Notes: generated by a model not told the origin, from the letters alone. A stretch of 64,000 nucleotides of DNA from an uncultured Candidatus Saccharibacteria bacterium (GCA_964479835.1 CAYZRE010000001.1:31630-95629), one strand, 5' to 3'; numbered from the stretch's first letter, positions 3,078-45,532 are shown. Made by a program: numbers and translations.

Positions 3078-3104
3078 ATAATAACATATCTACCTTCAAT
3101 ACGG

Positions 3105-3191
3105 CGGAGAGGGTGAGATTCGAACTCACGGGGCTCTTGCGAGCCCGGCGGTTTAGTAAACCGCTGCTTTAGACCGCTCAGCCACCTCTCC
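3105..3191 (-). tRNA. class II (long variable arm) Ser-type tRNA with apparent anticodon ACU (loop TTACTAA)
   Basis: Minus strand, 87 nt. Acceptor GGAGAGG/CCTCTCC, G73 discriminator, 3-bp D-stem with long D-loop. Anticodon stem GCGGT/ACCGC, loop TTACTAA. 18-nt variable arm hairpin GGGCTC-GCAA-GAGCCC. T-arm GTGAG-TTCGAAT-CTCAC. Confidence 0.6.
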
Positions 3192-3193
3192 AG

Positions 3194-3372
3194 GGAATTG
3201 TAACGGAAGGATTCATCCTCCGGGTAAACGGCTCACAGTCTGAGCCGTTTACCTCCGGGCTCCGGCCCTCGTGGTATCGGCTACTGCCGATACATCACTC
3301 CGGGCTTCGAATCCTTCCGCGTATTCTACATGATACACAGACAGGTGCCACATGGCACCTGTCTGTGTATAT
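3194..3372. repeat. hairpin-rich spacer containing fragments of tRNA-Ser 3-prime ends in both orientations
   Basis: Copies of GGAAGGATTC / GAATCCTTCCG (matching the T-arm/acceptor of the adjacent tRNA-Ser) at 3202-3216 and, inverted, 3304-3319. Perfect hairpins at 3228-3258 (13-bp stem), 3280-3299 (8 bp) and 3336-3369 (15-bp stem, loop ACAT). Confidence 0.4.
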
Positions 3373-3462
3373 GCGGAGACGGAAGGATTCGAACCTTCGG
3401 TTCGGTTTGACCCGAACACCTCTTTAGCAAAGAGGCTCATTAGACCACTCTGACACGTCTCC
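3373..3462 (-). tRNA. tRNA-Ser(GCT)
   Basis: Minus strand, 90 nt. Acceptor GGAGACG/CGTCTCC, G73. Anticodon arm CCTCT-TTGCTAA-AGAGG. 20-nt variable arm, T-arm GAAGG-TTCGAAT-CCTTC. Confidence 0.8.
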
Positions 3463-3520
3463 AAAAAAGCCTTGCCATTCTACCATTTTTCAGTACTATA
3501 TTCAACAGCGGAGGTGGCCA

Positions 3521-20334: not shown

Positions 20335-23300
20335 ATGTCCGATTTCAAGGAGCTTGAAGAGCGCATGCTCGCATTCTGGGAAGACAACGATGTCTTCCGA
20401 AAAAGCATGCATCAACACGAAGGACGGAAGCCATTCGTGTTCTTCGAGGGGCCGCCGACAGCCAACGGAAATCCCGGCATCCATCATGTCATCGCGCGCG
20501 TCTTCAAAGACCTCATCAGTCGCTACAAAACAATGCGCGGACACTTTGTATTGCGCAAAGGCGGATGGGATACCCATGGACTACCCGTTGAAATACAAGT
20601 CGAGAAAGAATTGGGATTCAAGAGCAAGAAAGATATCGAAGCGTACGGCATCGCCGCCTATAATGCCAAGTGTCGTCAGTCTGTATGGAAATTCAAGGAA
20701 GAGTGGGAGCGCTTCACGCGCCGCATTGGATACTGGGTAGACCTCCAGAATCCGTATGTGACCTATGAGAATCCGTACATCGAATCGCTCTGGAACATCA
20801 TCGGCCGCATCTGGGACAAGAAGCTACTCTATCAGGCGCACCGTGTCGTTCCATTCTGCACTCGCTGCGGTACGCCGTTGTCCAGTCATGAAGTCGCACA
20901 GGGCTATAAAACGGTCACGGACAATTCGGTGTATCTGAAGTTCAAAGTGAAGAGTTCCAAGCTCAAGCTTCCCAAGAATTCGTTCATTCTGGCATGGACC
21001 ACAACGCCGTGGACATTACCGGGCAACGTCGCACTCGCGGTTGGTCGCGACATCAACTATGTCCTCGCCACATCAAGCGGAGGAGACGAGCATTATATTA
21101 TTGCTGCTGACCTGGCCAATAAAGTACTGGGTGCGCCGCTTGCTATCGAACGCCAGTTCACGGGCCGTGAACTCATCGGCACTTCCTACCAGCCGTTATT
21201 TGCCGTCAAAGCTCTCAAAAAACCGAAGTCATACAAAGTGTATGAGGCCGATTTTGTTTCAACTACTGATGGCACGGGTGTCGTACACACAGCGGTTATG
21301 TACGGTGAGGACGATTATCAGCTGGGCACGAAGCTCGGACTAGTGAAACAGCACACCGTTGATGAACAGGGGAAATTCTTCGGTGTATCGAAAGAGTTGG
21401 ACGGAGCATATGTCAAAGCCGTGAGTACAGAAGCCATTATTCTGGATAAACTGAAAGCTGATAACGCATTACTCACGACTGCTCCCTTCGAGCATGAGTA
21501 TCCGTTTTGCTGGCGTTGTGATACTCCGCTGTTGTATTACGCGAAGGACAGCTGGTTCATCCGCATGAGCGCAATCAATGCTCAACTGCTTGCAAATAAC
21601 GATACGATTAACTGGGTTCCGGAACATCTCAAAGACGGGCGTTTCGGCCAGTGGCTTCGCGAAGGAAAGGATTGGGCGTTTTCTCGTGAGCGCTACTGGG
21701 GTACACCGCTTCCCATTTGGCAGGCCCGCGACAAGAAAGGCAAGGGGACCGGGCAGTGTCTGGTCGCTCACTCAATGGAAGACCTCGACACCTATCGCGG
21801 CGATAAGCCGGCTCACTTCTGGGTGATGCGCCACGGTGAAGCGCGCAAAAATGTGGACCATATCATCGACCAGGGCGAACTTGAGTCGCCGCTGACTGAT
21901 GTCGGCAGAGAGCAGGTAATCAGCGCGGCGCGGGCGCTCAAAAAACAATTATCTTCCGCGCGCACGAAATTGACCGCCGTCATCTCATCACCGATTCAGC
22001 GAACACTGGAGACGGCCGAGATTGCAGCGCAGGAGTTGGGCATAAAGACCATCGTTACCGATGAACGATTGCGCGAAATTAAACTCGGTCCGACACTGGC
22101 CGGATGTCATGACGGTAAGTACCACGAGCTCTACCCGACCTACGAGTCCAAGTTCACCCAGCAGCCGCCCGGGGGTGAGTCACTCGCCGATTTGAGGACC
22201 CGCATGTGGCAGATGCTTACGGAGCTGAACACGAAGTACTCCGGCAAAGATGTTTTGCTGGTCAGCCACGAATATCCCATCTGGATGATGACGGATGCAG
22301 CAAACGCGTGGAACAGGGAGCAGTCCATTACCGAGAAACAGAAACGCGGGAATGATTTTATCGGGTTTGCGTCCGTCGAGCAGCTGGTTGTGCGCAATCT
22401 ACCGCGCGACCCCGCAGGTATGCTGGACCTACACCGACCGTTCATCGACGATATTGTTCTGAAGTATCCCGATAGTTCTGCCAAGCTATATCGCGTGCCG
22501 GAAATTGCCGATGTGTGGTTCGATTCCGGTGCTATGCCCTATGCGCAGTGGCACTGGCCATTTGAGAATGAAAAAGTTTTCCAACAGCAGTTCCCGGCCG
22601 ATTTCATCTCCGAGGCCATCGATCAAACCCGCGGATGGTTCTACACGCTGTTGGCGGTCTCTACATTATTAGGTGACGGTGCACCGTACAAAAATGTACT
22701 GTCTCTGGGGCACATCTTAGATGAGAAGGGTCAGAAGATGTCAAAATCGAAAGGCAATATCGTCATGCCTGACGATGTATTCAGCGCGGTCGGCATTGAC
22801 GCAACGCGTTGGTATTTTTATACGGTAAATGCGCCGGGCGATACAAAGAATTTCTCCATGAAGGAGGTGCGCGAGCGTTTGACCGGTTTTATGATGACAC
22901 TCAACAACTGTCTGCGTTTCTATGAACTGTACCGAGCACAGCACGATACGATTCATCCGGAATTTTCCTCGGAGTCTTCTTCGAACTTGCTGGACAAGTG
23001 GATTGTGTCGCGACTGCGCGAGGTTACCGTGCTGGCGACTGCGCGACTGGACACCTACGATATTACCGTGGCTGCCCGCGAGCTGGAGCGATTCGTCGTA
23101 GACGATTTTAGTCAGTGGTGGCTTCGTCGCAGTCGCAAGCGCAGCGATGCTCTGCCGTTGCTGAGGCATATCCTGCGCTCGTTATCACTACTTCTCGCCC
23201 CGTTTATTCCGTACACAGCCGAGGAGCTGTGGCAGAAGCTCAAGTCGGAAGGGGACCCTCTCTCGGTACACCTTGCCGATTGGCCCGCCACCGGCGACAA

Positions 23301-23811
23301 GACGGCGATTGATGTGCAACTACACCAACAGATGATGCAGGTACGCGAGTACATCAGTGCCGGACTTGCGGCACGCAAAGAAAATCAGATTAAAGTCCGC
23401 CAACCTCTGCAATCAGTGACCGTCCCGGGCAAAAAATTGCACAATGACTTGGAAGATCTTATCCGTGATGAACTCAATGTGAAAGAAGTGAAATATGAAC
23501 CCGGTGCCGCAATTATGCTCGATGTGCACATTGGTACGCAATTGCGCGCGGAAGGATTCGCGCGTGAAGTGATGCGTACCGTGCAGGATATGCGCAAGGA
23601 ATTAGGCTGTCAGGTGACCGACCGCGTGTACTGCCAATGGTTTAGTGAGGATGCAGAAGTCAGCGCTGCGCTTCTTCAGCACGGCGACATGATTGCCCGC
23701 GAGACGGGCCTGTCGGCATTCGTGCATCAGGCCGACGATAAGACGCTTACCATTGAGAAAAACTTCGAGCTTGCTCTCGGTAAAGCTCTTTGGATTGGTA
23801 TCCGAAAATAA
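20335..23811 (+). CDS. ileS: isoleucyl-tRNA synthetase with embedded histidine-phosphatase (PGM-like) domain
   Basis: HIGH variant PPTANGNPGIHHV, KMSKS (KMSKSKGN), WCxRC, GTPLPIW, DVWFDSG. About 250-aa insert carrying RHGE...SPLT...VSHE histidine-phosphatase motifs between GTPLPIW and DVWFDSG. Confidence 0.9.
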   Translation: MSDFKELEERMLAFWEDNDVFRKSMHQHEGRKPFVFFEGPPTANGNPGIHHVIARVFKDLISRYKTMRGHFVLRKGGWDTHGLPVEIQVEKELGFKSKKDIEAYGIAAYNAKCRQSVWKFKEEWERFTRRIGYWVDLQNPYVTYENPYIESLWNIIGRIWDKKLLYQAHRVVPFCTRCGTPLSSHEVAQGYKTVTDNSVYLKFKVKSSKLKLPKNSFILAWTTTPWTLPGNVALAVGRDINYVLATSSGGDEHYIIAADLANKVLGAPLAIERQFTGRELIGTSYQPLFAVKALKKPKSYKVYEADFVSTTDGTGVVHTAVMYGEDDYQLGTKLGLVKQHTVDEQGKFFGVSKELDGAYVKAVSTEAIILDKLKADNALLTTAPFEHEYPFCWRCDTPLLYYAKDSWFIRMSAINAQLLANNDTINWVPEHLKDGRFGQWLREGKDWAFSRERYWGTPLPIWQARDKKGKGTGQCLVAHSMEDLDTYRGDKPAHFWVMRHGEARKNVDHIIDQGELESPLTDVGREQVISAARALKKQLSSARTKLTAVISSPIQRTLETAEIAAQELGIKTIVTDERLREIKLGPTLAGCHDGKYHELYPTYESKFTQQPPGGESLADLRTRMWQMLTELNTKYSGKDVLLVSHEYPIWMMTDAANAWNREQSITEKQKRGNDFIGFASVEQLVVRNLPRDPAGMLDLHRPFIDDIVLKYPDSSAKLYRVPEIADVWFDSGAMPYAQWHWPFENEKVFQQQFPADFISEAIDQTRGWFYTLLAVSTLLGDGAPYKNVLSLGHILDEKGQKMSKSKGNIVMPDDVFSAVGIDATRWYFYTVNAPGDTKNFSMKEVRERLTGFMMTLNNCLRFYELYRAQHDTIHPEFSSESSSNLLDKWIVSRLREVTVLATARLDTYDITVAARELERFVVDDFSQWWLRRSRKRSDALPLLRHILRSLSLLLAPFIPYTAEELWQKLKSEGDPLSVHLADWPATGDKTAIDVQLHQQMMQVREYISAGLAARKENQIKVRQPLQSVTVPGKKLHNDLEDLIRDELNVKEVKYEPGAAIMLDVHIGTQLRAEGFAREVMRTVQDMRKELGCQVTDRVYCQWFSEDAEVSAALLQHGDMIARETGLSAFVHQADDKTLTIEKNFELALGKALWIGIRK

Positions 23812-42238: not shown

Positions 42239-42274
42239 CGGGGAGCGCTGAGGTCAGCGCTCCCCGTTTTCTTA
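42239..42274 (+). terminator. strong intrinsic terminator (plus-strand orientation) in the thrS-dnaE intergenic region
   Basis: 13-bp stem ACGGGGAGCGCTG/CAGCGCTCCCCGT followed by TTTTCTT. Confidence 0.5.
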
Positions 42275-45200
42275 TGCAACGATGGCGATTGGCTTCGCGG
42301 TGTCACAGAGCAGTTTGAGGTTACCGTCGCGGTTATCGAGTTTGCCGGACAACACGACCACCGTGTTGGGGGCCCAAGCGTTCGGGGACTTCTCCAGTAC
42401 GGAAGGGAAGACGACCACTTCAATTTTCGCCGTGATGTCTTCGATGATTGAGAACAGCATCGGTTTGCCGGTTTTGGTGAGGATTTTCTTTGTACTGGTG
42501 ATAAGACCGGCGATTTTTGCCTGCGAGCCGGGGATTGGCTTGAGATCTTTGATGGCCGTCGGCCGCTCAAGAGCAAGGCGTGCTTGATATTCGCTTAATG
42601 GATGTTCGCTGATGTACAGACCAATGAGTTCTTTTTCCCACCGGAGACGGTCGGCTTTCGCTGCGGGCTCAGCGGGCGTCAGTTTCACGGGCGGCAGTTC
42701 TGCTTGCATGGCCTCCCCGAATAGACTGACCTGTCCCATTGTGGAGTGTCTTTGCTTTTCTTTTGCGTGAATGAGGAGGGTCTCGATATTCGCCAGCAGT
42801 GTATTGCGTTCACCCATACTGTCGAGTGCGCCGCATTTTGCGAGCGTCTCCAGCGCTTTGCGGGACATGTCTTTATGCTGGACGCGGACAATTAAATCTT
42901 CGATGTCCGCGAATGGTCCGTTGGTGCGACGCTCTTGGATGATGGCACCGACCACGGACGCGCCGATATTCTTGACGGCAGTGAGCCCGAACCGTAGTGA
43001 TGGCTTTTCCGCTGTGCCGATGACGGTGAACCGCTCGGCACTTTCGTTGATGTCGGGGGGTAACACCTGAATATCCATCTGCCGCGCTTCATCTATGAGA
43101 AACGCAACGCGTTCAATGTCGCCGGTTTCCGAATTCATGAATGACGCCATGAATTCGTTCGGATAGTTTGCTTTCAGATACGCAGTCTGGTACGCAATCA
43201 TGCCATAGCAAGCCGCATGTGCTCGGTTGAATCCATAACTGGCGAACGGTTCTATGAAATTCCACACCTGTTCTGCGAGTGCGCGCGAGTGTCCGATAGT
43301 GACCGCGCCCTGACAGAATTTTTCTTTTTGTTCGTCCAAAAGTGACCGTATCTTTTTGCCCACTGCTTTACGCAGGATGTCTGCTTCTGCATAGGTGAAT
43401 CCGGCGAATGTGCGGGCAACCTGGAGCACCTGGTCCTGAGTAACGATAACTCCGTAGGAATCTTTTAGAACGGGCTCCAGAGAAGGGTGCAGGTAGGTGA
43501 CGCGCTTACGGCCGTGCTTGGCGTCAATGAAATCAGGAATGGCGTCCATCGGACCCGGTCGGTACAGCGCGACCATAGAGAGGATGTCTTCAAACTCCGT
43601 GGGTTTGAGTTCTTTGAGGTACCGCTTCATGCCGGACGATTCCAATTGGAACACGCCCGTGGTCTGTGCTTTCTGCAGGAGCTCGAATGCCTTGGGGTCA
43701 TCCATCGGGATAGTATCTATATCAATCGAGACGCCGAGGTTGGACCGGACCATGTTCACGGTATCCTCAATGATGGTGAGGTTGGAGAGACCCAAGAAAT
43801 CCATCTTCAACAATCCCAAGTCTTCGACCGCGTGCATTTCGTACTGGGTGATGATGTCGTTCTCGTTCGTGCCCATCTGAAGCGGCACATATTCGGTAAG
43901 TGGTTGTGGCGTGATGACCACCGCGCAGGCGTGCGTGGACGCGTGTCTCGCCACGCCTTCGAGTTTGCATGCCGCGTCGATGAGTGCTTTTGCCTGGGTG
44001 TCGGTGTGGTAGAGCCGAGTGACCTCTTCAACATTCTCCACGCAGTACTGGAGAAACGGTTTGCCGGTGCGCTTACCCGGATAGTCGGGAATAGGACCGG
44101 CCGGGATAATCTTGGCGATGGAATCACAGAAATCATAGGTGTATCCCAGAGCGCGGCCGGCATCACGGATACTGCCCCGGGCGGCCATGGTGCCGAAGGT
44201 AATGACTTGGGCGACATGATCTTTGCCGTACTTGTCTACAACATACTGGAGCACTTCGCCGCGCCGCGCATCGGCGAAATCAAGGTCAATATCCGGCATA
44301 CTGATGCGCTCGGGGTTCAGAAAGCGTTCAAAAATAAGATTGTATTTGATGGGGTCAACATTCGTGATGTTCAGGGCGTAGGTCACGAGACTTCCGGCGG
44401 CAGAACCTCTGCCCGGACCGACTAAGATACCCTGTTGCTTTGCCCAGTTCACGAAATCTTGGACGATAAGGAAGTAAGACGAAAAGCCCGTCTCTTTGAT
44501 AACTCCCAGTTCGTAGTCCAACCGTTCAGTGATACTTGGCGCAAGTTTCTTTCCGTATCTTCGTTGTGCGCCCTCGTATGCCAGGACTTTGAGATAATCA
44601 TACGCGTCCCTGTAGCCCTTGGGCAGCGCATACGGCGGCAGTTTTGTTTTCCCCAACTCAATAACCAGATTACAGCGATCGGCGATGGCGGTCGTATTCG
44701 CGAATGCCTCGGTAGTCACATCCGCCGGCAGAGAAGCGAACTTTTCTCGCATGGTCTCTTCGGAGCAGAAGGAAAAATCATCCTGATTCATGGAGAACCG
44801 CTTTTCATCGTGAATCGTGTTGCCCGTCTGCACCGCAAGCAGAATGTCGTGCGCTTTGGCATCTTCGGGGAGGCAGTAGTGTGAATCTTGACTCGCGACA
44901 AGTCCGATGCCCAGCTCGCGGGCGAGTGCGACGAGCTTGGGCGTCATCTCGTTTTGCTCCGGCATGTTGGTGTGCTGCTGCAGTTCAATGTAGAAGTTGT
45001 CGGGCCCCATGATATCGCGGTACTCGGACGCTATGCGACGAGCTTTCTCGTCAGCACCTGCCGCCAGCGCGCGCGATATCTCTCCGCCAAGACAACTTGA
45101 TAACGCGATGAGACCCTCGTGGTGTTCGCGCAGAAGTTGTTTGTCGATGCGCGGCTTGTAGTAGAACCCTTCCAGATGCGCCGCGGTGACGAGTTTCACG

Positions 45201-45532
45201 AGATTACGGTACCCGGTTTCATCTTTGGCTAACAGGATGAGATGCCAGCGTTTGTCGGTATCAATACCGGGGCGTTTGTCATGTCGCGTCGTGTCGGTGA
45301 TGTACATCTCGCACCCGATGATGGGCTTGATGCCGGCCTTCGTCGCTTTTTTATAAAATTCGATGGCACCATAGAGCACGCCGTGATCGGTCAGCGCCAT
45401 GGCGGTCATGCCGTGCTCTTTCGCGCGCTTTACCAGTGCATCGATTTTTGAGAGCCCATCCAAAAGCGAGTAGTGCGAATGCGTGTGCAGATGAACGAAT
45501 GGTGAGGTGGGCATGTCGATCAGGTGAAACAA
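42272..45532 (-). CDS. dnaE: DNA polymerase III alpha subunit
   Basis: N-terminal PHP domain HLHTHSHYSLLDG; 1086 aa. Confidence 0.95.
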   Translation of the reverse strand: MFHLIDMPTSPFVHLHTHSHYSLLDGLSKIDALVKRAKEHGMTAMALTDHGVLYGAIEFYKKATKAGIKPIIGCEMYITDTTRHDKRPGIDTDKRWHLILLAKDETGYRNLVKLVTAAHLEGFYYKPRIDKQLLREHHEGLIALSSCLGGEISRALAAGADEKARRIASEYRDIMGPDNFYIELQQHTNMPEQNEMTPKLVALARELGIGLVASQDSHYCLPEDAKAHDILLAVQTGNTIHDEKRFSMNQDDFSFCSEETMREKFASLPADVTTEAFANTTAIADRCNLVIELGKTKLPPYALPKGYRDAYDYLKVLAYEGAQRRYGKKLAPSITERLDYELGVIKETGFSSYFLIVQDFVNWAKQQGILVGPGRGSAAGSLVTYALNITNVDPIKYNLIFERFLNPERISMPDIDLDFADARRGEVLQYVVDKYGKDHVAQVITFGTMAARGSIRDAGRALGYTYDFCDSIAKIIPAGPIPDYPGKRTGKPFLQYCVENVEEVTRLYHTDTQAKALIDAACKLEGVARHASTHACAVVITPQPLTEYVPLQMGTNENDIITQYEMHAVEDLGLLKMDFLGLSNLTIIEDTVNMVRSNLGVSIDIDTIPMDDPKAFELLQKAQTTGVFQLESSGMKRYLKELKPTEFEDILSMVALYRPGPMDAIPDFIDAKHGRKRVTYLHPSLEPVLKDSYGVIVTQDQVLQVARTFAGFTYAEADILRKAVGKKIRSLLDEQKEKFCQGAVTIGHSRALAEQVWNFIEPFASYGFNRAHAACYGMIAYQTAYLKANYPNEFMASFMNSETGDIERVAFLIDEARQMDIQVLPPDINESAERFTVIGTAEKPSLRFGLTAVKNIGASVVGAIIQERRTNGPFADIEDLIVRVQHKDMSRKALETLAKCGALDSMGERNTLLANIETLLIHAKEKQRHSTMGQVSLFGEAMQAELPPVKLTPAEPAAKADRLRWEKELIGLYISEHPLSEYQARLALERPTAIKDLKPIPGSQAKIAGLITSTKKILTKTGKPMLFSIIEDITAKIEVVVFPSVLEKSPNAWAPNTVVVLSGKLDNRDGNLKLLCDTAKPIAIVA

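Follow-up and report, generated by a model that had tools for sequence, protein, structure and literature searches.

Ever since Crick proposed wobble, it has been a rule without explanation that adenosine is almost entirely missing from the first anticodon position (A34), most of all in two-codon boxes. In the box shared by serine and arginine (AGN), A34 has been described in a review as universally missing (PMC8007984). Raval et al. (2026), whose genomic survey was based on GtRNAdb, called seven split-box ANN tRNAs universally absent, built them artificially, and worked with native G34A libraries (bioRxiv 10.64898/2026.05.15.725136). Engineered ACU tRNAs in Escherichia coli mature, are active, read AGU over AGC at a ratio of at least 95:5, and are not edited by TadA (PMC11066159; bioRxiv 10.64898/2026.05.15.725136). 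Here, we analyze a natural tRNA-Ser gene with the anticodon ACU, located in a 64,000-nucleotide stretch of DNA (the window) from an uncultured “Candidatus Saccharibacteria” bacterium (GCA_964479835.1 CAYZRE010000001.1:31630-95629). Our analysis indicates that this gene, tRNA-Ser(ACU), probably encodes a functional extra serine isoacceptor whose unmodified A34 would read AGU by Watson-Crick pairing, beside a tRNA-Ser(GCU) and with the genetic code unchanged. Ser(ACU) is an overlooked natural exception to the “universally absent” A34 of the Ser/Arg box.

Our search of the open-access literature turned up no account of a Ser(ACU) (or “ACT”) tRNA in nature. Bacteria of the candidate phyla radiation (CPR) and uncultured phages are probably poorly represented in GtRNAdb. 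In the paper on tRNA introns of Patescibacteria and in its supplements, tRNAs are counted by amino acid, not by anticodon, and “Ser-ACT” calls may well have been seen by annotators without comment. The natural tRNA-Ser(ACU), which corrects the statement of universal absence, recurs across Patescibacteria and in many tRNA arrays of uncultured phages.

The tRNA-Ser(ACU) gene and its relatives

The gene occupies 3105..3191 on the minus strand and encodes an 87-nucleotide class II tRNA without the CCA end. ARAGORN called tRNA-Ser(act) at 3103..3191 (-), one of six tRNA genes in the window, and Rfam family RF00005 matched 3105..3191 (-) over its full length with 56.4 bits (gathering score, 29; E value for the whole window, 1.7e-9). 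The 5' part reads GGAGAGG UG GCU GAGCGGUCUAA AGC A GCGGU UUACUAA ACCGC C and is followed by GGGCUCGCAAGAGCCC C GUGAG UUCGAAU CUCAC CCUCUCC G. This sequence forms a 7-bp acceptor stem, a D arm of the serine type (GCU...AGC with C11-G24), a 5-bp anticodon stem (GCGGU/ACCGC), a 16-nucleotide variable arm with a 6-bp stem of its own (GGGCUC-GCAA-GAGCCC), and a 5-bp T stem. All stems are intact, and U8, A14, G18G19, U33, the T loop UUCGAAU, and the discriminator G73 are all there. The 7-nucleotide anticodon loop, UUACUAA, consists of U33, the anticodon A34-C35-U36, and A37 with its flanks. The anticodon ACU (AGT on the plus strand) lies at 3155..3157 (-), as read directly from the sequence and as placed by ARAGORN, and A34 is the complement of plus-strand T3157. 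A first-pass annotation, made from the sequence alone, had described a well-formed class II serine tRNA with this stem, this loop, and A34 and had proposed tRNA prediction as a check; the description and the anticodon placement were both borne out.

Serine identity rules, including G1-C72, G2-C71, C11-G24, and G73, are “independent of the anticodon” (PMC9976931). Our gene has G1-C72, G2-C71, and G73, the last in the position where leucine and tyrosine tRNAs have A73, and it agrees with bacterial tRNA-Ser in all structural features tested, the sole exception being the anticodon. ACU lies outside the known bacterial serine set (GCU, GGA, UGA, and CGA), yet it is the Watson-Crick match of the serine codon AGU. 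The marks of a tRNA pseudogene (broken stems, lost loop residues, and lack of conservation) are absent. The locus at 3105..3191 is confirmed as a genuine serine-type class II tRNA gene with A34.

Syntenic loci in related Patescibacteria were fetched through IF-2 homologs (75 to 82% identity); their gene order is pilus operon, comF, tRNA, small open reading frames (ORFs), IF-2, and then tRNA-Cys/Leu/Arg. The first-pass annotation had counted standard serine tRNAs at orthologous loci as a sign against a real ACU gene. On this point the relatives gave a mixed answer: three carry GCU alone at the syntenic site (L002, L003, and L004), five syntenic loci have ACU in addition to GCU, and ACU is also present in a sixth contig. 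Both genes stand at the site in L005 (GCA_964444955.1), L006 (JGI 3300040746), L128 (GCA_964491455.1), and L129 (JGI 3300037851), in the last of these in tandem as in the window and 54 nucleotides apart. A 90%-identical relative, L001, is rearranged at the locus; L001, like L256 below, comes from 0.1-µm filtrates of Hainich groundwater. Scanning metagenomes with a body-specific pattern in which position 34 was left free yielded two further contigs (L255 and L256), both with A34; in L255, the ACU gene lies upstream of IF-2 as in the window, with a tRNA-Arg(tct) 29 nucleotides upstream of it. The A34 gene is thus present in six related “Candidatus Yanofskybacteria”-like contigs (L005, L006, L128, L129, L255, and L256) from NCBI, JGI, and ENA assemblies. 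Among the ACU genes of this clade, the anticodon arm is invariant, and the acceptor, T, and variable stems vary by compensatory changes. The six independent related assemblies together with these stem changes exclude a one-base assembly or sequencing error and a pseudogene, both of which the first-pass annotation had entertained.

The GCU genes of these relatives fall into two forms. All five ACU-bearing syntenic loci, as well as L067, have a GCU gene with the D arm GUCAGAG and the stem CCUCU, and in L005, L006, L128, L129, and L067 the body of this gene is of the type found in the window; at the three loci without ACU (a statement on the locus only), the GCU gene has the D arm GGCUGAG and the stem GCACG. 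A GCU gene lies no more than 8 kb from the ACU gene in at least 12 loci, as is expected if ACU does not cover AGC.

For a wider view, one genome per species was scanned with the pattern GCAGCGGTTTNCTAAACCGCC, N being position 34, and at least 120 loci were obtained, for which the taxon labels are the submitters' own. Position 34 was A in at least 27 loci (Ser(ACU)), G in at least 71 (ordinary tRNA-Ser(GCU) of Chloroflexota, Verrucomicrobiota, Nitrospira, and others), T in at least 17 (class I tRNA-Arg(UCU)), and C in at least 5 (class I tRNA-Arg(CCU)). Among the matches listed, ARAGORN called Ser(act) in 26 of 26 complete A34 loci; all 15 CPR-titled loci have A34, and none of the 71 G34 loci is CPR titled. 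The CPR titles with A34 are Gottesman-, Levyi-, Woese-, Pace-, and Saccharibacteria, Minisyncoccia, and “Patescibacteria group.” Nine of the 12 otherwise-labeled A34 loci among these matches have GC contents of 38 to 48% and CPR loci as their best translated matches, and they probably belong to the CPR too. Two high-GC loci labeled Planctomycetota (L013 2976..3066 and L037 7429..7519) stand outside the CPR pattern; their Ser(act) gene has a U:U mismatch in the T stem and resembles the commonest phage type in IMG/VR, and the two contigs may derive from prophages or phages, in which case they would not be an instance of the gene in bacteria outside the CPR. In L056, a further ACU gene has another anticodon stem, which the scan pattern could not have picked out. 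This Levyibacteriota contig (JAHFKE010000107.1; L056 1..3507) contains six serine tRNA genes in 3.5 kb (two ACT, one GCT, two TGA, and one CGA) and an Arg(gcg).

When 29 distinct ACU sequences were aligned as a cloverleaf, 99.4% of the stem cells were paired, compared with 37 to 63% in slid controls. Double-sided (compensatory) changes occur in 15 of the 24 pairs (108 cells), which was reached in none of 500 shuffles, and all four scored variable-arm pairs covary in this way. All 29 sequences have G1-C72, G2-C71, C11-G24, and G73; that the anticodon stem does not vary across the scan loci is a product of the search pattern and is not evidence. The ACU gene belongs to a conserved lineage of A34 serine tRNAs in many Patescibacteria (CPR) and is not a one-off mutant.

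The anticodon stem of the ACU genes is the one that is near-universal for bacterial GCU genes. As an observation on its own, the stem GCGGU/ACCGC and its flanks are common to tRNA-Ser(GCU), tRNA-Ser(ACU), tRNA-Arg(UCU), and tRNA-Arg(CCU) in many phyla (L007 to L126), and these four kinds of tRNA all serve the AGN box. Many CPR ACU genes, found in Microgenomates-type genomes, have the D arm UCGCAUAG, as do Chloroflexota GCU genes. The stems of the GCU genes that reside beside them are different, and outside the anticodon arm it is usually the ACU gene that is more similar to orthodox GCU genes (in L036, 0.84 for ACU versus 0.60 for GCU). This pattern is seen in most Microgenomates-type pairs and is gone in the window's clade. 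Given this exception and a reference set biased by the search pattern, the similarity does not settle which of the two genes kept the ancestral body.

A34 serine tRNAs are also found in viral genomes. IMG/VR was scanned with GGTTTACTAAACC and GGTTCGAATCC, separated by a gap of 15 to 40 nucleotides, which gave at least 120 viral loci (L130 to L249). Among the loci listed, ARAGORN called Ser(act) in all 120, with at least 71 distinct sequences; G73 is present in 115 and the variable region measures 14 to 21 nucleotides in all. In most of them, Ser(act) lies inside a phage-typical array of 5 to 21 tRNA genes, together with Asn(gtt), Thr(tgt), Gln(ttg), Arg(tct), Glu(ttc), Lys(ttt), Ile(tat), and others; Arg(tct) accompanies it in 46 of the 120 and Ser(gct) in only 1. 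ORFs of two IMG/VR loci match PHROG families. Among the 734 tRNAs of the listed loci, the only other A34 anticodon is that of Arg(acg), seen three times, and the other NNY boxes have G34. tRNA-Ile(tat), with an anticodon also said to be missing in bacteria, is frequent in these arrays (18 genes), and the fetched arrays show a recurring order, Lys-Glu-Ile(tat)-Ser(act)-Asn-Gln-Thr-Arg(tct). In type, the ACU genes of phages are homologous to the one in the window, but they constitute a set of their own. Megablast and blastn searches of the GenBank phage collection, using phage-type and window ACU tRNAs and 32-nucleotide anticodon arms, found no ACU stem-loop, short queries of this kind missing other stems; the matches checked were Ser(tga) (Bellamy, 121Q, Bastille, and RN05-S) and GCU (S-CBWM1). 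Megablast with one IMG/VR locus found no cultured relative.

Codon meaning and the state of A34

The first-pass annotation had raised the possibility that A34, deaminated to inosine, makes a serine tRNA that decodes AGA. The 61 long ORFs of the window contain 164 AGU, 182 AGC, 62 AGA, 50 AGG, and 1082 CGN codons. In DnaE, compared with 116 homologs, the AGA codons at residues 325, 375, and 529 correspond to arginine in 115 to 116 of the sequences and a fourth AGA to a Lys/Arg site, and the AGU codons at residues 381, 411, 831, and 936 correspond to invariant serine. In the genes shared with the fetched relatives, AGA (three sites) and AGG (five sites) of the window are aligned mostly with arginine and never with serine, and AGU and AGC are aligned mainly with serine. 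The sole AGA in IF-2 is at a variable site, where Arg and Lys are among the residues. The conservation of AGA/AGG, which the first-pass annotation had itself suggested examining, thus gives no support to serine decoding, and on the evidence of these alignments AGA means arginine and AGU means serine in this genome. In the low-GC CPR loci with an ACU gene, AGA reaches 13.4 per 1000 codons and is one of the two top arginine codons (level with CGT); it reaches 16.8 per 1000 in the listed phage loci, where it is the most used arginine codon and AGU, at 19.3 per 1000, the most used serine codon. Because AGA is a leading arginine codon in ACU-bearing genomes, a serine tRNA that reads it would be very costly, and reassignment is again not supported. 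At one further position in DnaE (42272..45532 (-)), residue 765, AGT stands where 108 of 116 homologs have arginine; the codon is one base from AGA/AGG, and this is a single site, the remaining conserved AGT sites all being serine.

We propose the following course of decoding. Judging from its identity elements, tRNA-Ser(ACU) would be charged with serine by seryl-tRNA synthetase (SerRS) through its long variable arm, G73, and acceptor stem and not through the anticodon. Its A34 would remain unmodified. N6-threonylcarbamoyladenosine at position 37 (t6A37) is expected, as in other ANN-codon readers. The tRNA would then read AGU by Watson-Crick pairing, as the E. coli data support; tRNA-Ser(GCU) would cover AGC, plus AGU by wobble, and tRNA-Arg(UCU/CCU) would keep AGA/AGG as arginine. 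Seven two-codon boxes are of the NNY kind (Phe, Tyr, His, Asn, Asp, Cys, and Ser-AGY), and only that of serine is served by a synthetase that ignores the anticodon. Since SerRS is blind to it, a change from G34 to A34 would carry no aminoacylation cost, and this may be why ACU is the only split-box A34 anticodon used in nature. The phage arrays keep G34 in every other NNY box, which fits this rule, itself drawn from established identity rules.

Indirect evidence favors an unmodified A34. The A34 of bacterial tRNA-Arg(ACG) normally becomes inosine, and an engineered Phe tRNA(AAA) in E. coli is apparently partly edited; if TadA or a relative acted on tRNA-Ser(ACU) as well, it would read AGU, AGC, and AGA, leaving AGA ambiguous or serine. 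Such a reader of AGU and AGC would suit phage arrays in which Ser(gct) is nearly always missing, but the host supplies GCU anyway, and we regard inosine formation by TadA or a relative as improbable. TadA substrates have the loop type U33-A34-C35-G36, whereas tRNA-Ser(ACU) has U36. In the boxes served by TadA, NNA has the same meaning as NNU and NNC; here, the invariant arginines of DnaE at AGA, the lack of any serine aligned to AGA or AGG, and the rank of AGA among arginine codons in both phage and CPR ACU loci all tell against inosine, as does the tRNA-Arg(UCU) that adjoins the ACU gene in L255. An orthogonal M. jannaschii tRNA with ACU in E. coli read AGU at 9.4% and AGG at 0.36%, and its reading of AGC and AGA fell under the detection limit; no inosine was present at its anticodon, E. 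coli TadA having left ACU unmodified (PMC11066159). The GCU genes retained near ACU in at least 12 loci would be redundant if an ICU anticodon read AGC. According to Shulgina and Eddy, CPR use Arg(GCG), and a gene for tRNA-Arg(ACG) “appears to be lacking” in them (PMC8629427); the CPR-like loci studied here contain Arg(gcg) four times and Arg(acg) never. However, Chloroflexota control loci also carry Arg(gcg), which weakens it as a marker of TadA loss. A tblastn search of the 64-kb window with approximate E. coli and S. aureus TadA queries gave only spurious matches to NusB and RNase III and thus no TadA-like ORF, which, for a window of this size, says little for the genome. More broadly, the chance that position 34 of the Ser(ACU) family carries inosine or an as yet unrecognized modification, in CPR and/or in phage-infected cells, appears to be low. 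If it did, decoding would be widened or retuned; the tRNA might, for example, read AGU and AGC, or insert serine at AGA/AGG at a low, regulated level. The family would then be a natural example of the Ser/Arg split box being decoded ambiguously or according to conditions, not a plain AGU reader.

Several points weigh against the view that tRNA-Ser(ACU) is a serine isoacceptor dedicated to AGU. ARAGORN isotype names derive from the anticodon alone; the scan patterns fixed the anticodon stem or loop, and no frequencies can be derived from them; and AGU makes up 0.33 to 0.48 of AGY in the ACU-bearing relatives of the clade, where the need for an AGU-specific tRNA is not obvious. In addition, unmodified A34 reads all four codons in Mycoplasma, mitochondria, and engineered tRNA-Gly, as far as summarized in the Raval et al. 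preprint (bioRxiv 10.64898/2026.05.15.725136), and by analogy some AGR misreading by tRNA-Ser(ACU) is possible. An unmodified A34 might indeed superwobble over the four AGN codons at a tolerated low level, with some Arg-to-Ser mistranslation (a statistical proteome), and the trace of AGG reading by ACU in E. coli would fit. We consider this improbable as well, because AGA and AGC were below detection in that same experiment (PMC11066159), the cognate arginine tRNAs are present, and persistence of the ACU tRNA where AGA is a leading arginine codon argues that misreading is negligible. It is slightly less probable still that the tRNA is mainly a nondecoder, either a serine donor for a nonribosomal process such as cell wall or lipid aminoacylation or, as has been proposed for phage tRNAs, a backup isoacceptor spared by an anticodon nuclease or toxin whose target is tRNA-Ser(GCU). 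According to reviews, “missing” anticodons may signal noncanonical functions; phage tRNAs can reportedly evade anticodon-loop nucleases (PMC10264068), and the Ser(ACU) type is abundant in phage arrays. Nevertheless, its T loop, T stem, U33, and A37 are canonical, ACU exactly matches a much-used serine codon, and no aminoacyl-transferase gene is linked to it within the window. Least credible of all, with hardly any probability, is an artifact or a dead gene, namely, a one-base assembly or sequencing error in a GCU gene or a decaying duplicate. ACU is one G-to-A change from the standard anticodon, and the exact 87-nucleotide sequence has no match in the representative-genome collection, the species simply not being among the representatives. 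However, A34 recurs in the six related contigs from different projects, in at least 27 other genome loci, and in at least 120 viral loci, the compensatory covariation is strong, and the body-specific pattern with N34 returned A every time.

Returning to the AGU-reading isoacceptor, its benefit can be gauged from codon usage. AGU accounts for about 65% of AGY in AT-rich phage and CPR loci, 48% in the window (54% GC), and 0.25 in relatives without ACU at the locus. The benefit of an AGU-dedicated tRNA is clear for AT-rich phages and CPR and less clear for the genome of the window or for L129 (59% GC). As a driver, AGU codon bias is suggestive only, since other Y-ending boxes shift with GC content too.

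The partner gene, the spacer, and the genomic setting

The conventional AGY decoder, tRNA-Ser(GCU), is located at 3374..3462 (-) (ARAGORN, 3373..3462; Rfam, 56.9 bits), 181 nucleotides upstream of tRNA-Ser(ACU) on the same strand. Its loop UUGCUAA differs from UUACUAA only at position 34, as previously observed in the first-pass annotation. Because the acceptor stem (GGAGACG), the anticodon stem (CCUCU/AGAGG), the T stem (GAAGG), the D arm, and the variable arm are all unlike those of tRNA-Ser(ACU), the two are separate genes, and this earlier claim holds as well.

A consensus scan found four promoter-like sites, with 0.5 expected. One of them, TTGAAT-17-TAGAAT with TG at 3477..3505 (-), lies just upstream of tRNA-Ser(GCU) and is a candidate promoter that could drive both serine tRNAs. 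A second, GTGGCA-17-TAGAAT at 3323..3351 (-), from the same scan, is situated between the tRNA genes upstream of the ACU gene; it overlaps a hairpin and is weak evidence. This hairpin (3333..3370 (-)), detected by repeat search and folding, is perfect, with 18-nucleotide arms and without a U tract, directly 3' of tRNA-Ser(GCU), and is possibly a processing or termination signal; L003, L004, and L129 have a hairpin of other sequence in the equivalent position. Folding and repeats also delimit a structured spacer element of about 118 nucleotides at 3203..3320 (-), which ends 11 nucleotides before the ACU tRNA and is closed by GGAAGGATTC/GAATCCTTCC. The whole spacer, 3192..3372, has a minimum free energy of -102.5 kcal/mol (z, -11.4), and Rfam at a permissive E value matched no family in it. 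A 12-nucleotide direct copy of the 3' part of tRNA-Ser(GCU) bounds the element (3203..3214 equals 3379..3390), and a 14-nucleotide inverted copy of that 3' part lies at 3306..3319. Among the relatives, L005, L128, and L255 have the GCU and ACU genes in opposite orientations, and the two genes are 3.6 to 5 kb apart with hypothetical genes between them in L005, L006, and L128. The inversions, the intervening genes, and the tRNA-Ser(GCU) copies in the spacer suggest that site-specific recombination or integration may occur at this tRNA locus.

The window is a segment of a bacterial chromosome with a GC content of about 54%. The serine tRNAs have as neighbors IF-2, a pair of small hypothetical genes, a phosphoribosyltransferase resembling ComF, and the PilM, PilO, PilB, and PilC genes of a type IV pilus operon; LigA, IleRS, PheS, and DnaE are found farther along. 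With its IF-2, pilus, DnaE, LigA, and aminoacyl-tRNA synthetase genes, the window is chromosomal and not a phage tRNA array. The nearest relatives of IF-2 and DnaE are from Patescibacteria metagenome-assembled genomes, several of them named “Candidatus Yanofskybacteria” or Paceibacterota, and a DnaE with 100% identity to that of the window is encoded on a 119-kb NCBI contig. IleRS (20335..23811 (+), 1158 amino acids) has a histidine-phosphatase domain (PF00300) inserted inside the synthetase at residues 496 to 661 (E value, 7e-33). Directly downstream of IF-2, L001 (3587..4228) and L004 (11564..12259) have a gene with a faint LAGLIDADG match that abuts or overlaps the start of tRNA-Cys and is absent from the window.

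Comparison with known decoding systems

The Ser(ACU) family suggests a simple rule, that the exception to A34 avoidance can arise in the one NNY box with an anticodon-blind synthetase. Genomes with Ser(ACU) are a natural system for studying decoding by unmodified A34 in vivo and the reasons for which A34 is avoided. There is also a caution for annotators and code-inference pipelines: a Ser(ACU) call in a CPR or phage genome should be taken neither for an error nor for evidence of AGA recoding.

Among the closest known systems is the bacterial tRNA-Ser(GCU), with which the ACU tRNA shares the class II cloverleaf, G73, G1-C72/G2-C71, C11-G24, U33, and A37, and an anticodon stem-loop that is identical save position 34 (GCAGCGGTTTNCTAAACCGCC, with N being G in at least 71 loci). 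It differs in having A34, with which G:U wobble is lost and AGU alone is expected to be read, and in standing beside a GCU gene of its own genome that has a more derived body. With tRNA-Arg(ACG), which TadA converts to ICG, and with tRNA-Leu(AAG) of some Bacillota, the ACU tRNA has in common an encoded A34 and the loop sequence U33-A34-C35. Those tRNAs serve four-codon boxes, in which I34 reading U, C, and A is harmless, whereas the box of ACU is split with arginine; moreover, the ACU tRNA has U36 rather than the G36 of tRNA-Arg(ACG), and there is no sign of AGA being read as serine.

Natural and probably unmodified A34 in reduced genomes is shared with Mycoplasma tRNA-Thr(AGU) and yeast mitochondrial tRNA-Arg(ACG). 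The A34 tRNAs of Mollicutes and organelles belong to family boxes and are valued for reading four codons, whereas the box of Ser(ACU) has two codons, so that reading all four would do harm; Ser(ACU) moreover supplements another tRNA and does not replace it. In the AGR-to-Ser reassignment of invertebrate mitochondria and in allo-tRNAs and anticodon-mutant serine tRNAs, a serine tRNA likewise acts in the AGN box with a SerRS blind to the anticodon. In contrast to these recoding tRNAs, ACU pairs with a serine codon, AGA/AGG stay arginine, and the acceptor and T stems have the standard 7 and 5 bp, not 8/4 or 9/3. Finally, the engineered ACU tRNAs of E. coli (PMC11066159; bioRxiv 10.64898/2026.05.15.725136) have the same anticodon. 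They are laboratory constructs with an anticodon thought to be absent in nature, whereas the tRNA of the window belongs to a natural, conserved family.

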